The position numbers and the translations under genes are program-made. A DNA stretch of 36,109 nucleotides, from the IMG/VR virus record IMGVR_UViG_641736116_000027. One strand, given 5' to 3'. Under the pieces are notes generated by a model. It ran no database searches, was not told where the DNA came from, and was given only the letters and a program-made list of their open reading frames with translations. How positions within the stretch are numbered: the stretch's first letter is position 1; the number at the start of each line of letters is the position of its first letter. This DNA is from a virus (taxonomy: Duplodnaviria > Heunggongvirae > Uroviricota > Caudoviricetes). This document shows, in pieces, positions 1-36,109 of this stretch.

Positions 1-1143
1 CTATGCTGTTTTGATATCTACGATAATCCAGTCTTTACCACGATCATCATTGTATCGGTCGGTCATTTTTCTGGATTTATGACCTAACAACTTTTGCGTA
101 TCCAGACCCTGTTCCCGATATAACCGTTCTGACAGAGATCGCTGCTCATGAAATGTGGGCGCAGTTCCTTGCTCCCATTTTATGCCACATTTTTCCCTGG
201 CCTTTTTAAAAGCCGTTGTAAGAGTATTTGCAGACACCTGGTCTCCTCTGTTTGCTTGAGAGGTAGTGTGACGGTAATGGACCAGATATTTACTAACAAC
301 AGCATCCCTGCACTGAGATATAACTTCACGAAGGGTAATATTCAGAGCATCGCATTTCAGGTTAAGCGGAATAGCAAGTTTTGAACCGGTTTTTTCCTGA
401 GTAATGTGCAACATGTCGTCCCAGATATCAGAGAATTTCAAATTGCAGATATCGCTTAAACGTTGTCCAGTGACAAGAGCAAGTAGCATCCCGCATTTTA
501 AATAGGGCTGCCGTCTGCTTACGCTGTCAAATATTGCCTGCCATTCGGGCAGTGATAATCTTTGACGGTTTACTCGATTTCGCGGTTGTTTTGTTGCCTG
601 CGCTGGGTTAAATCCTGGCGGAACATGTCCTGCGTGTTGTGCTTCTTTGAAGACGTCGATCAACACCATTCTCACGACTTGCGCCATCCTGTTATGACCT
701 TCAGCCTTTACAGCATCAATTATTTCGGCAATATCAAGTGCGGTAATATCCTTGAGGTGTTGCATTCCACAATGCTCACGGAAAAGACGGATGGGTTTGC
801 CTTTTTGCCGATAGGAGTTGGGTCTTAGTTCATTATGTTGCAGCCTGTCCTCCTGGATAGAATTATATTTATCAAGCCATTCTGTCACCGTAATGTCTGA
901 GCGCCTGCCTTTCATTCTTTCCAGACGCTCATTGACGCTTAATATTTGTCGGGTACGTTGTTCAGCAATAATGGTATTTGCTTCAGTAGCAACTTGTTTT
1001 GCTTCATTCTCATCAGTTCCTAAGCTATGAAAACGACCGGATAGTGGATGTTTGTATTGCCAATATACCTTTCCGGTTCGCTTATCTAATTTGCAATATA
1101 AATTGGGTATAGAGATTTTGTGAGATCGGGGGCTAGCAGCCAT
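1..1143 (-). CDS. int: phage integrase, lambda-Int-like tyrosine recombinase (380 aa)
   Basis: Minus-strand ORF from the provided track. Carries tyrosine-recombinase catalytic motifs (TGQR, HEQRSLS, LLGHKS, TDRYNDDRG) and is followed by a small overlapping xis-like ORF. Confidence 0.9.
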   Translation of the reverse strand: MAASPRSHKISIPNLYCKLDKRTGKVYWQYKHPLSGRFHSLGTDENEAKQVATEANTIIAEQRTRQILSVNERLERMKGRRSDITVTEWLDKYNSIQEDRLQHNELRPNSYRQKGKPIRLFREHCGMQHLKDITALDIAEIIDAVKAEGHNRMAQVVRMVLIDVFKEAQHAGHVPPGFNPAQATKQPRNRVNRQRLSLPEWQAIFDSVSRRQPYLKCGMLLALVTGQRLSDICNLKFSDIWDDMLHITQEKTGSKLAIPLNLKCDALNITLREVISQCRDAVVSKYLVHYRHTTSQANRGDQVSANTLTTAFKKAREKCGIKWEQGTAPTFHEQRSLSERLYREQGLDTQKLLGHKSRKMTDRYNDDRGKDWIIVDIKTA

Positions 1144-1369
1144 CAGCGATTATCCGTTGGAGTTTTGGGTTTGCGTTTATTGGGAGTTGCGGTTCTGCAA
1201 GCGTTCCTACAAAACGGGAATTTCGGTCAATCATCCAGTAGCGACCAACTTTTATAGCGGGTGGGGCCATCATTTTCCCTTGCGCGTATTTTTTCAGAAC
1301 TCGCTCACTTGGTGCTAAGTCCCCAAATTCTTCTTTAGCCCAGTCCCGTAAAGTGATTAGTCGAGACAT
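1133..1369 (-). CDS. xis: excisionase-like protein (78 aa)
   Basis: Small basic ORF immediately upstream of int on the same strand, overlapping it by 11 bp, which is the classic xis-int arrangement. The family assignment is by position and size. Confidence 0.65.
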   Translation of the reverse strand: MSRLITLRDWAKEEFGDLAPSERVLKKYAQGKMMAPPAIKVGRYWMIDRNSRFVGTLAEPQLPINANPKLQRIIADGC

Positions 1370-1472
1370 TTGTCCTCCTCTTAGCTGCTGAGGGAGTTTG
1401 TGACCGATATATCTGACATGATATTAAGCTCATGGCAGGTACATCTCTTGACTGGTCATAGAGATAAATTTA

Positions 1473-32602: not shown

Positions 32603-32612
32603 TGGGGTGAAT

Positions 32613-35528
32613 ATGGCAGTAAAGATTTCAGGTGTACTGAAAGACGGCACAGGAAAACCGGTACAGAACTGCACAATCCAGCTGAAAGCAAAACGTAACA
32701 GTACCACGGTGGTGGTGAACACGCTGGCCTCAGAAAATCCGGATGAAGCCGGGCGTTACAGCATGGACGTTGAGTACGGTCAGTACAGCGTTATTCTGTT
32801 GGTGGAAGGGTTCCCGCCGTCACATGCCGGGACCATCACCGTGTATGAAGATTCTCAACCCGGTACGCTGAATGATTTTCTTGGTGCCATGACTGAGGAT
32901 GATGTCCGTCCGGAGGCACTGCGCCGTTTTGAGCTGATGGTGGAAGAGGTGGCGCGTAACGCGTCCGCGGTGGCACAGAACACGGCAGCCGCGAAGAAGT
33001 CAGCCAGCGATGCCAGCACATCAGCCCGTGAGGCGGCAACCCATGCGACTGATGCTGCGGACTCAGCACGCGCAGCCAGCACGTCAGCCGGACAGGCCGC
33101 GTCGTCGGCTCAGTCAGCGTCTTCCAGCGCAGGAACGGCATCAACAAAGGCTACTGAAGCATCAAAAAGTGCTGCCGCTGCAGAGTCCTCAAAAAGCGCG
33201 GCGGCTACCAGTGCCGGTGCGGCGAAAACGTCAGAAACGAATGCGGCAGTGTCACAACAATCAGCCGCCACTTCTGCATCCACCGCGACCACGAAAGCGT
33301 CAGAAGCTGCCTCCTCAGCCAGGGATGCGTCGGCTTCAAAAGAGGCGGCAAAATCATCAGAAACGAGCGCAGCCTCGAGCGCCAGTAGTGCAGCCTCCTC
33401 GGCAACGGCGGCAGGCAATTCCGCGAAGGCGGCCAAAACGTCTGAGACAAACGCTAAGTCCTCTGAAACGGCAGCAGAACAGAGTGCCTCCGCAGCAGCA
33501 GGCTCAAAAACAGCGGCTGCATTATCTGCCAGTGCCGCGTCAACAAGTGCCGGGCAGGCCTCAGCCAGTGCCACCGCCGCCGGAAAATCGGCAGAAAGTG
33601 CCGCATCGTCTGCTTCAACAGCCACAACGAAGGCTGGCGAAGCCACTGAACAGGCCAGCGCAGCAGCGAGTTCTGCTTCCGCAGCGAAGACATCCGAAAC
33701 GAACGCGAAAGCGTCGGAAACCAGCGCAGAATCCTCAAAAACGGCTGCCGCATCGTCAGCCAGTTCGGCGGCGTCATCGGCATCATCTGCGTCTGCTTCA
33801 AAAGATGAGGCGACCAGACAAGCGTCAGCAGCGAAGAGCAGCGCCACGACGGCATCCACGAAGGCGACAGAGGCAGCTGGTAGTGCGACGGCAGCAGCTC
33901 AGAGCAAAAGTACGGCGGAATCTGCAGCAACGCGCGCTGAGACAGCGGCAAAACGGGCAGAGGATATTGCATCCGCCGTGGCGCTTGAGGATGCGAGCAC
34001 GACGAAAAAGGGGATAGTACAGCTCAGCAGTGCGACTAACAGCACTTCCGAGTCACTGGCGGCAACGCCAAAAGCCGTTAAGGCCGCGTATGAGCTGGCT
34101 AACGGGAAATACACCGCACAGGATGCAACGACAGCACAGAAAGGGATAGTTCAGCTTAGCAACGCGACCAACAGCACATCTGAAATGCTGGCGGCAACGC
34201 CAAAGTCGGTAAAGGCAGCCTATGACCTTGCTAACGGGAAATATACTGCTCAGGACGCTACGACAGCACAAAAAGGAATTGTCCAGCTCAGTAGTGCAAC
34301 CAACAGCGCATCTGAAACGCTTGCCGCGACACCGAAAGCAGTGAAAGCAGCTAATGATAATGCGAATGGTCGGGTACCTTCTGCCCGTAAGGTGAATGGT
34401 AAGGCGCTTTCATCGGATATAACACTGACGCCGAAAGATATTGGTACGCTTAACTCAACAACAATGTCATTCAGCGGTGGTGCTGGTTGGTTCAAATTAG
34501 CAACGGTAACCATGCCACAGGCGAGTTCTGTTGTTTCAATTACGTTGATTGGTGGCGCGGGATTTAACGTGGGGTCACCTCAACAGGCAGGTATATCTGA
34601 ACTTGTTTTGCGTGCAGGTAATGGTAATCCGAAGGGGATTACTGGTGCTTTATGGCAGCGCACATCGACAGGGTTTACAAATTTTGCCTGGGTCAATACA
34701 TCTGGTGATACTTACGATATTTACGTTGCAATCGGAAATTATGCGACTGGTGTAAATATTCAATGGGATTATACCAGTAATGCCAGCGTGACGATTCATA
34801 CGTCACCAGCATATTCTGCTAATAAGCCGGAAGGGTTAACGGACGGTACAGTTTATTCACTCTATACGCCATCAGAGCAGTTTTATCCGCCTGGCGCACC
34901 AATCCCGTGGCCATCAGATACCGTTCCGTCTGGCTATGCCCTGATGCAGGGGCAGACTTTTGACAAATCTGCATACCCGAAACTTGCAGCCGCTTATCCG
35001 TCAGGCGTGATCCCTGATATGCGTGGCTGGACGATTAAGGGCAAACCTGCCAGTGGTCGGGCCGTATTGTCTCAGGAACAGGACGGCATTAAATCGCACA
35101 CCCACAGCGCCAGCGCATCCAGTACGGATTTGGGGACGAAAACCACATCGTCGTTTGATTACGGCACTAAATCCACGAATAACACCGGGGCGCACACGCA
35201 CAGTGTGAGCGGTACAGCCGCAAGTGCCGGAAACCATACTCATAGTGTCACAGGCGCATCAGCAGTCAGCCAGTGGTCACAAAATGGGTCAGTACATAAG
35301 GTAGTGTCTGCGGCCAGTGTGAATACAAGTGCTGCAGGAGCGCACACTCATAGTGTCAGCGGCACAGCTGCATCTGCAGGTGCTCACGCACATACTGTCG
35401 GTATTGGTGCTCATACGCACTCTGTTGCGATTGGCTCACATGGACACACCATCACCGTTAACGCTGCGGGTAACGCGGAAAACACTGTCAAAAACATCGC
35501 ATTTAACTACATTGTGAGGCTTGCATAA
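32613..35528 (+). CDS. stf: side tail fibre protein Stf (about 971 aa)
   Basis: N-terminus [26 protein letters not shown]... and C-terminus ...[22 protein letters not shown] match Stf-family fibres. Has a long Ala/Ser/Thr-rich central region, three tandem ~43-aa repeats and a His-rich C-terminal segment. The ATG at 32613 is preferred over the GTG at 32607. Confidence 0.9.
33999..34365 (+). repeat. three tandem ~130-bp direct repeats inside stf
   Basis: Repeat units begin near 33999, 34128 and 34260, and encode ...[11 protein letters not shown](S/N)ATNS(T/A)SE(S/M/T)LAATPK(A/S)VKAA... three times. Confidence 0.8.
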
Positions 35529-36109
35529 TGGCATTCAGAATGAGTGAACAACCACGGACCATAAAAATTTATAATCTGCTGACCGGAACTAATGAATTTA
35601 TTGGTGAAGGTGACGCATATATTCCGCCTCATACAGGTCTGCCAGCAAACAGTACCTATATTGCACCGCCAGATATTCCGGCTGGCTTCGTGGCTGTTTT
35701 CAACAGTGATGAGTCATCGTGGCATCTCGTTGAAGATCATCGGGGTAAAACGGTTTATGACGTGGCTTCCGGCGACGCGTTATTTATTTCTGAACTCGGC
35801 TCATTACCGGAAAATGTTACCTGGTTATCGCCGGAAGGGGAGTTTCAGAAGTGGAACGGCACAGCCTGGGTGAAAGATGCAGAAGCAGAAAAACTGTTCC
35901 GGATCCGGGAGGCGGAAGAAACAAAAAACAGCCTGATGCAGGTAGCCAGTGAGCATATTGCGCCACTTCAGGATGCTGTAGATCTGGAAATCGCAACGGA
36001 GGAAGAAACCTCATTGCTGGAAGCCTGGAAAAAGTATCGGGTGTTGCTGAACCGTGTTGATACATCAACTGCACCTGATATTGAGTGGCCTGTAATACCT
36101 GAAGTTTAA
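35528..36109 (+). CDS. tfa: tail fibre assembly protein Tfa (193 aa)
   Basis: [38 protein letters not shown]... is lambda Tfa-like. Its start overlaps the stf stop (TAATG) and its stop codon is the last three bases of the window. Confidence 0.9.

Follow-up and report, generated by a model that had tools for sequence, protein, structure and literature searches.

Mosaic relationships of a lambda-like stretch assigned to the cryptic Escherichia coli O157:H7 prophage Sp8

The virus record IMGVR_UViG_641736116_000027 (Caudoviricetes) consists of one stretch of 36,109 nucleotides (nt), here called the window, which runs from an integrase gene (int) to a tail fibre assembly gene (tfa). A first-pass annotation made from the sequence alone had described it as a patchwork of segments resembling phage lambda and segments resembling DLP12 of Escherichia coli K-12. 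The locus raises the question of which element this is, where it is inserted, and whether the patchwork is real. We are highly confident that the window is the int-to-tfa part of Sp8, a cryptic lambda-like prophage at the 3' end of icd in E. coli O157:H7, and that it is a patchwork of two layers. Mosaic, modular genomes are a textbook property of lambdoid phages, and Sp8 is an already known and ordinary lambdoid mosaic.

Identity of the stretch and its block pattern

Over all sequence outside its insertion sequence (IS), the int-to-tfa stretch is 99.89-100% identical at the nucleotide level to the Sakai feature "prophage Sp8; lambda-like phage", and the Sakai annotation gives the same genes in the same order (ECs_1609-ECs_1651 and onward). 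The first 25 kb of the window is approximately 100% identical to many O157:H7 chromosomes, and at least 80% of this part is covered in 324 of 5,426 complete E. coli genomes. In the flanks of identical O157:H7 copies, 113 bp separate the end of icd from window position 1, so that the element lies just downstream of icd in the O157:H7 chromosome; this icd site has been equated with Sp8 (PMC8190617). Sakai Sp8 shares with the window the insertion next to icd, the gene order, the xis-O' fusion and the absence of cI and cro, but has neither the IS629 copy between ren and emrE nor the 4-bp deletion in ybcK that the window carries. Variation is slight: the non-Sakai O157 strains that were compared differ by 1-3 substitutions, and Sakai by 30 over 31.5 kb. 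We found no literature link between Sp8 and the EDL933 prophage name CP-933X and have not equated the two.

The gene order is lambdoid. After int and xis on the minus strand, the plus strand carries O', P, ren, the IS, emrE, ybcK, the nin genes, Q, the holin gene, R, Rz, cos, the head and tail genes, J, lom, stf and tfa, and both the map of open reading frames (ORFs) and the per-gene comparison with lambda agree with the conserved order int-xis ... O-P-nin-Q-lysis-cos-head-tail-tail fibre. About 23 kb are 94-97% identical to lambda and the 12-nt cohesive end is identical; long high-identity stretches of this kind, cos included, would be expected to permit recombination with lambda. The immunity region (cI/cro with operators) and early antitermination by N or an equivalent are absent, and Sp8 is therefore a defective member of the group.

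Both window ends coincide with stop codons, as had been noted at the outset: the last base of the int stop (minus strand) is position 1 and that of the tfa stop is position 36109. Ends that fall exactly on two stop codons, together with the fact that lambdoid repeats are a classic source of misassembly, could mean that the block pattern is an artefact of assembly or window cutting, a chimera of similar prophages. The same arrangement is found, however, in hundreds of independently finished genomes, including Sakai, and the ends are annotation-based cuts beyond which the flanking DNA runs on normally. We have rejected the assembly chimera on these grounds and regard it as extremely improbable.

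Blocks were mapped against lambda (NC_001416) and K-12 DLP12 by blastn, a 300-nt identity track and per-gene tblastn, and all three bear out the mosaic of lambda-like and DLP12-like segments. Identity jumps in steps from 93-99% to nothing that can be detected and back again; chance comes nowhere near explaining the pattern, which is real. Lambda matches the window at 1831-3267 (lambda 39119-40555; the C-terminal half of O, P and ren; 94.5% nt identity), at 9985-12991 (lambda 45500-48502; 96.5%) and at 12992-31440 (lambda 1-18461; 97.0%). It then matches part of stf at 32421-33520 (86%, with later patches weaker, down to 78%) and tfa at 35379-36092 (93%); within the lambda-like regions the identity track ranges from 84% to 100%. 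DLP12 matches the window at 2684-3323 (99%), 4634-6813 (97%), 7094-8681 (93.5%), 10454-14008 (97.7%) and 35674-36091 (97.4%). Neither reference matches int (34.5% amino acid identity to lambda Int), xis, Q, the holin gene, the C-terminus of J, or lom. The set of nearest relatives thus differs from block to block, which is a signature of mosaicism.

"Lambda-like" and "DLP12-like" are overlapping labels and not alternatives. By tblastn, P', ren, Rz, bor, ybcV, ybcW, ylcI, nu1 and tfa are as close to DLP12 as to lambda, or closer, and many segments look like both because DLP12 is a colinear, more heavily deleted relative. The first-pass labels need to be qualified in this light. O C-terminus, P and ren are lambda-like as proposed, but not exclusively, being 99% identical to DLP12 from 2684 onward. 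For R through tfa the lambda label holds from R to about residue 975 of J and again in tfa; it fails for the J C-terminus, lom and the middle of stf, and several of the genes it does describe are equally DLP12-like.

Lambda itself resembles the window in the O C-terminus, P, ren, and R to J (to residue ~975) at 94-97% nt identity, in its identical cos, and in its head and tail genes, all of which are intact in the window. The window departs from lambda in int-xis, the attachment site, the O N-terminus with its iterons, nin, Q, the holin, the J receptor domain, lom and most of stf, and has no exo-bet-gam, N, cI, cro or cII. DLP12 resembles the window at 93-99% in P'-ren, emrE-ybcK, ybcN-ylcG, Rz-bor-ybcV-ybcW-ylcI-cos-nohD-A' and tfa, and beyond the window it is also colinear with Sp8 in ybcY, tfaX and ompT. 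It differs in its argU site, its unrelated int and its ybcL-ybcM genes, in having QuuD, nmpC, EssD and RrrD where the window has Q82, a LydA-type holin and lambda R, and in having lost everything from A to tfa, which the window keeps. DLP12 is best seen as a more heavily deleted colinear relative of Sp8 at another attachment site.

Junctions had been placed at gene boundaries or a few codons inside genes. This describes 3267, where lambda similarity stops 27 nt before the ren stop at 3294, 9985, where it begins 5 nt past the R start at 9980, 8681 (the ylcG stop and Q start) and, for DLP12, 10454 (the Rz start). Other junctions, however, lie deep in genes at domain boundaries: in O at 1831, in J at ~31403-31440, in lom at 32421, and in stf at 33520 and 35379. 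These deep junctions were absent from the first-pass annotation, as were IS629 (3324-4633), emrE and the frameshifted ybcK.

No independent phage matches the window uniformly. The best, at variable identity, is the complete lambdoid phage record PhiR47_2 (PV340567), which covers 86% of the first 25 kb. It is colinear with the window from int to J, with int-xis 99% identical, a copy of the icd 3' end at its att site, O-P-ren, emrE-ybcK, nin, Q82 and holin 99-100% identical, and lambda-like late genes. It differs in retaining 7.1 kb from exo through cII and a full-length O, and in its bor-cos interval, J C-terminus, stf and right-arm cargo (sitABCD); the ybcV-ylcI, J C-terminus, lom and stf modules of the window are missing from it. 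Because PhiR47_2, which was isolated independently, has the same early-to-lysis block order, this combination existed as a working phage.

The existence of PhiR47_2 bears on whether the mosaic could instead have arisen after integration, through recombination between the lambdoid prophages that share the O157 chromosome. At least 10 such prophages are present in O157 (PMC2669165). The first 25 kb of the window matches 22-28 places per O157 genome, and the region from Q to the candidate late promoter occurs at two. In addition, mismatches to lambda per 100 nt of the 18.4-kb late block are over-dispersed (variance/mean 3.2, against at most 1.32 in 1,000 shuffles), which is compatible with patchy homologous exchange such as gene conversion, although uneven selective constraint could also produce over-dispersion. 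Yet the joints from int to J recur in PhiR47_2, a phage record from outside this prophage, near-identical copies of the modules occur in phages of other hosts, and the O157 copies compared differ by just 1-3 substitutions (30 against Sakai). We therefore consider recombination among resident prophages improbable as the source of the mosaic, and prefer exchange among phages before integration.

Integration module, deletion scar and replication region

The int gene (1-1143, minus strand; Pfam Arm-DNA-bind_1 and Phage_integrase) encodes a tyrosine integrase that has arm-binding and catalytic domains of lambda type and belongs to the icd-targeting type, that of the e14 and phage 21 site, and xis (1133-1369, minus strand; Pfam Exc, PHROG 629) encodes the excisionase of the same module. 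That this module is of a different type from the rest, as originally suggested, is confirmed: Int is 60% identical in amino acid sequence to e14 IntE and 34.5% to lambda Int, and has no DLP12 match. Xis is 36% identical to e14 XisE and 98.7% identical to the Xis of PhiR47_2. At the DNA level int-xis is ~99% identical to 27 intact lambdoid phages, including ev017, 4A7 and PhiR57_1. Adjoining the same int in PhiR47_2 is a 152-bp segment with 97% identity to icd nt 1088-1239, so that the hallmark of an icd-targeting integrase, insertion in the icd 3' end with a phage-borne duplicate of that end, is found through this relative. The integration target is icd and not a tRNA gene. ARAGORN found no tRNA in the window or in flanks of 12.4 kb and 1.3 kb, and DLP12-type integration at argU with intD does not apply, the window int having no DLP12 match and its site being icd. 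The first-pass annotation was thus right that the target and the att sites lie outside the window, and wrong in the tRNA that it suggested.

A right-hand attachment site was sought with blast queries consisting of icd with the attL spacer, K-12 icdC, the P arm of PhiR47_2, and the K-12 DNA to the right of e14. Within ~19 kb downstream of tfa these gave no second icd 3' copy, no P arm and no K-12 right-flank DNA, and the same queries against Sakai Sp8 returned only icd itself. The attR site therefore appears to have been lost from Sp8, and the attL-attR pair of an excisable element was not found. Sp8 resembles the e14/phage 21 system in its insertion at the icd 3' end and in the phage-borne replacement of that end. 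Unlike e14, it lacks the displaced icd fragment (icdC in K-12) and attR, and outside the integration system the two elements are unrelated.

Between icd and int there are a terminator-like hairpin, next to icd, and, in the spacer just before the int stop, three direct TTCCCCAAAAC repeats. A similar motif is also present on the other arm of the PhiR47_2 attP, and by analogy with lambda the repeats are plausible candidates for arm-type Int sites.

The joint between xis and O had been taken for an exchange point. While the first 12 codons of the O ORF are indeed not O, the joint at 1508-1510 is a scar of decay and not of module exchange. Window 1-1509 corresponds to PhiR47_2 130-1638 and window 1509-3323 to PhiR47_2 8762-10576, so that 7.1 kb have been removed with 1 nt of microhomology at the joint. 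Relative to PhiR47_2 the lost DNA comprises orf61/63/60a, exo, bet, gam, kil, a toxin-antitoxin pair, cI, cro, cII and the first 77 codons of O, and the joint fuses xis-proximal DNA to O codon 78. All 27 intact phages with the shared int-xis cease matching at exactly 1509. A 221-nt probe spanning the joint is contiguous in 296 of the 5,426 complete E. coli genomes, those among the matches listed being O157:H7; approximately 2,400 other genomes match one probe half only and, among the matches listed, each ends at the joint base.

The resulting truncated replication initiator, O' (1473-2297, plus strand), has 12 foreign codons followed by O from the lambda-equivalent of residue ~48, as an alignment of the translations shows. 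Loss of the N-terminal part of the DNA-binding domain is visible in its matches to Pfam Phage_rep_O, which start at profile position 28 of 95, and to PHROG 277, at 47 of 318, and RefSeq annotates the gene as a pseudogene "missing N-terminus". Judged from its sequence, O' is likely a pseudogene.

Within O' lie five palindromic TTACCYGAATCAGGTAA copies (1719-1831, plus strand; repeat search and TRF), which we take to be the iterons of the replication origin, followed by an AT-rich stretch at 1833-1870. Lambda homology starts directly after the fifth window iteron, at 1831; the corresponding lambda base, 39119, immediately follows the fourth iteron of lambda. The iterons are predicted to be of a non-lambda specificity, and the true exchange point in O is in mid-gene, at 1831. 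In lambda, O is matched in specificity to the iterons through its N-terminal domain and touches P through its C-terminal domain. With the joint at 1831, function is preserved. From this point the first lambda-like block (1831-3267, plus strand) takes in the C-terminal domain of O followed by P (2294-2995) and ren (2992-3294). Amino acid identity to lambda is 97.9% for P and 90% for ren, and the 99% nt match to DLP12 that begins at 2684 is to peaD/renD.

Downstream of tfa, the right arm of Sp8 carries genes for a Mn-catalase, two ferritin-like proteins, a stress protein and a ybcY-like methyltransferase, then a tfa fragment, ISEc8, an alpha/beta hydrolase gene, ompT and a helix-turn-helix gene. 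The right arm is colinear with tfaD-ybcY-tfaX-appY-ompT-envY of DLP12. Because the arm includes ompT, the ompT of O157 lies in Sp8. Past this cargo, backbone sequence begins again with a truncated autotransporter gene that neighbours minE. On the other side, just upstream of phoPQ and ~9-12 kb before the window, a small phage remnant with genes for a major capsid protein, a head decoration protein and a small terminase forms a separate prophage-like element.

IS629, the nin region and the late operon

Between ren and emrE lies a 1,310-bp copy of IS629/IS1203 (3324-4633, plus strand; IS3 family), 100% identical to annotated O157 IS1203 copies. It has orfA (3378-3704), orfB (3701-4591) and an ALIL frameshift pseudoknot found by Rfam at 3659-3775, and is flanked by a 3-bp target duplication GTA (3321-3323 and 4634-4636, recognized against the empty site). 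Its size of 1.3 kb, the two reading frames, the -1 frameshift signal and a duplication in the range of 3-4 bp all agree with membership in IS629/IS1203, an element type that has terminal inverted repeats. IS629 was found at the window site 3324 in none of the 5,426 complete genomes. Its position in Sp8 is polymorphic: between ren and emrE in the window, in ybcK in F7386 and similar strains, between bor and ybcV in H6437 and similar strains, and nowhere in the Sakai stretch.

The DLP12-like block that follows (4634-6813, plus strand; 97% nt) contains emrE (4675-5007), a ylcJ-like ORF and ybcK (5252-6774), with emrE 98% and ybcK 98-99.7% identical to DLP12 in amino acid sequence. YbcK is a large serine recombinase (Pfam Resolvase, Recombinase and Zn_ribbon_recom) whose gene is frameshifted by a 4-bp deletion at ~6321 (6319-6322), seen against H6437; Sakai does not have the deletion. 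It is shared with TW14359 and 7386Nal, where RefSeq marks the gene "frameshifted" and neither of which has an IS in ybcK. The deletion is at most 1 bp from the IS629 insertion point in F7386, whose ybcK is otherwise intact and whose Sp8 differs from the window by one substitution only. Removal of the IS, one target copy and 4 further bases from the F7386 sequence yields the window ybcK sequence, and the deletion may be the footprint of an IS629 excision.

The DLP12 cargo ybcL-ybcM is absent between 6813 and 7094. From there the nin block (7094-8681, plus strand; 93.5% nt to DLP12) begins with a ylcH-like ORF and continues with ybcN/ninB-like (7276-7731), ninE (7731-7901), ybcO (7894-8184), rusA (8181-8543) and ylcG (8540-8680). 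Its proteins are 85-98% identical to those of DLP12, and lambda matches to them are weak or lacking; across the whole region emrE-ybcK-ybcN-ninE-ybcO-rusA-ylcG the agreement with DLP12 is 93-97% in nucleotide and 85-99.7% in amino acid sequence.

The nin genes, Q and the holin had been grouped as "DLP12-like or of another lambdoid type". The first alternative fits nin, but neither Q nor the holin is of DLP12 type. Q (8677-9366, plus strand; Pfam PF06323, E=1e-94) is 98.2% identical in nucleotide sequence to Q of phage 82 (X92588.1) and 88.6% to that of phage 434, and is predicted to be a late-gene antiterminator of the phage 82 family; tblastn gave no match to lambda Q or DLP12 QuuD. The holin gene (9688-9993, plus strand; Pfam PF16083, PHROG 785) encodes a LydA-type protein of holin superfamily III. 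It has no tblastn match in lambda or DLP12 and is neither of the lambda S nor of the DLP12 EssD type; in the phage collection PhiR47_2 alone is close, the next relatives being Klebsiella phages at 78-80%. We take PF06323 and PF16083 to be families other than those of QuuD and EssD. The window Q, holin and R show no similarity to QuuD, EssD and RrrD of DLP12.

These two genes bear on a further possibility, that no exchange took place and that the unmatched parts are simply fast-evolving lambda genes in a single lineage with very uneven rates. The range of lambda identity from 84% to 100% would fit such a lineage, as would the residual amino acid identity of 40-46% to lambda in the J C-terminus and lom. 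Uneven rates would not, however, yield a Q that is 98% identical to phage 82, Q and holin proteins in Pfam families other than those of lambda and DLP12 and without a tblastn match, or transitions that are completed within a few bases. Given such step-like joints, rate heterogeneity as the sole cause was rejected and has next to no probability in our judgement; exchange of modules remains the preferred reading.

A consensus scan gave a candidate pR'-like late promoter at 9350-9378 and two terminator-like hairpins at 9434-9460 and 9548-9564, all on the plus strand. Lying between Q and the holin gene, these candidates would fit lambdoid late-operon architecture. The region from Q82 through pR' to the holin start (8677-9700) occurs at two places per O157 genome, so that one of the other resident prophages holds a second Q82-like region. 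Genomes that cover 80% or more of the 8677-9700 stretch number 791 and outnumber the carriers of Sp8.

The second lambda-like block (9985-31440, plus strand; 96.5% and 97.0% nt on the two sides of cos) extends from R (9980-10456) to about residue 975-985 of J. Its first part consists of R, Rz/Rz1, bor, ybcV, ybcW and ylcI, and its stretch 10454-14008 is equally DLP12-like (97.7%). The cohesive end GGGCGGCGACCT at 12992-13003 is identical to that of lambda and is followed by nu1, A, W, B, C/nu3, D, E, FI, FII, Z, U, V, G/T, H, M, L, K, I and J. All ORFs of the block are intact and 92-100% identical to lambda in amino acid sequence (J over its first ~950 residues only; 90% as a whole), with R at 94% and Rz through I at 92-100%. 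Divergence is concentrated in two hot spots, one at the 3' end of H (25592-26100; up to 26 mismatches per 100 nt and a 12-nt deletion at 25659) and one in V (21892-22100; 11 mismatches per 100 nt), within a late block that is otherwise 97-99% lambda-like. In K (27111-27854), one extra G relative to the lambda reference at 27245 gives a 247-residue ORF that starts 6 nt after L. The annotated K of lambda has 199 residues and follows L after a 148-bp gap, and the upstream lambda frame matches the first ~30 residues of the window K.

The host-range module that follows has been replaced (31403-32548, plus strand); its parts are the C-terminal receptor-binding region of J (to 31882) and another allele of lom (31949-32548). 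Against lambda, J shows 94-100% identity in its first ~950 residues, 80% in residues 951-1000 and 38-44% in the last ~130-150; for Lom the figure is 46%. In nucleotide sequence, the J C-terminus/lom/stf/tfa module matches Salmonella phage SPF_0923, as well as PhiR29_2 and 2H10, at 96-97%. The side tail fibre gene stf (32613-35528, plus strand; Pfam phage_tail_N, Phage_fiber_2 and Collar) is an intact mosaic of 971 codons whose N-terminal ~300 residues are 86% identical to lambda, while the middle and C-terminus differ. Within it, TRF found a 132-bp repeat in 2.6 copies (34006-34351; 78% identity) that encodes the Phage_fiber_2 repeats, and the AT skew of this repeat region is unusually strong (0.31-0.37). 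The tail fibre assembly protein encoded by tfa (35528-36109, plus strand) is 93% identical to lambda Tfa and 97.9% to DLP12 TfaD. Inside its coding sequence, at 35871-36069, there is a full-length match of 229 bits to Rfam "IS009" (RF02111), a candidate small RNA family; the Rfam scan of the window returned only this and the IS3 frameshift pseudoknot, and no phage regulatory RNAs.

Origin and decay of the patchwork

From the observed identities, joints, scars and genomic context we infer a history in two layers. In the first, before integration, lambdoid modular exchange would have assembled cassettes of differing history in a conserved gene order: an icd-specific int-xis, a non-lambda O N-terminal domain with matching iterons, a lambda-type O C-terminus with P and ren, a DLP12-type emrE-ybcK-nin region, a phage 82-type Q, a LydA-type holin, lambda-type R, cos, head and tail genes, and a non-lambda J receptor domain, lom and stf. 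The joints would have been kept at gene or domain boundaries, where hybrids stay functional. The second layer would be decay in the O157 lineage after integration. The 7.1-kb deletion would have removed recombination, immunity and cII functions together with the DNA-binding end of O, and further steps would be the IS629 insertion, the 4-bp frameshift in ybcK and the loss of attR. As a result Sp8 would probably not be inducible, excisable or able to replicate, though its late operon and cos are intact.

The published behaviour of Sp8 agrees with this picture. Sp8 has been described as lacking CI/Cro and the recombination genes while keeping all morphogenesis genes, and no circularisation, replication or packaging was seen in experiments (PMC2669165); in another study it was found to be among the fixed, highly conserved prophages (PMC5359411). 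This immobility is accounted for by the deletion, the truncated O and the missing attR.

Several points count against our reading or narrow it. The in-silico table of the 2009 study scores Sp8 "+" for both replication and excision, although the experiments in the same paper were negative for both (PMC2669165); the "+" scores conflict with the O' truncation and the missing attR and are not supported here. The exact configuration, with IS629 between ren and emrE, is present in none of the 5,426 complete genomes, and it is the lineage of the window that has been identified. The timing of the exchanges, before or after integration, is read from one intact relative. Finally, within the e14/phage 21 type the integrase was compared with e14 IntE.

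The finding carries little weight beyond annotation hygiene, since Sp8 had already been annotated and tested experimentally. With its undamaged late operon, cos and Q82, without a repressor, and in genomes that have a second Q82-pR' region, Sp8 could conceivably be switched on in trans by a co-resident prophage and act as a parts reservoir or recombination partner. We regard this as a speculation that is probably wrong, as we do, separately, the reading of the ybcK deletion as an IS629 excision footprint. If trans activation did occur, Sp8 might be a source of lambda-type lysis, head and tail parts for the other O157 prophages. The more useful by-products are the mapped 7.1-kb deletion and the missing attR, which explain the immobility of Sp8, and the recognition of DLP12 and Sp8 as colinear relatives that have decayed to different degrees.

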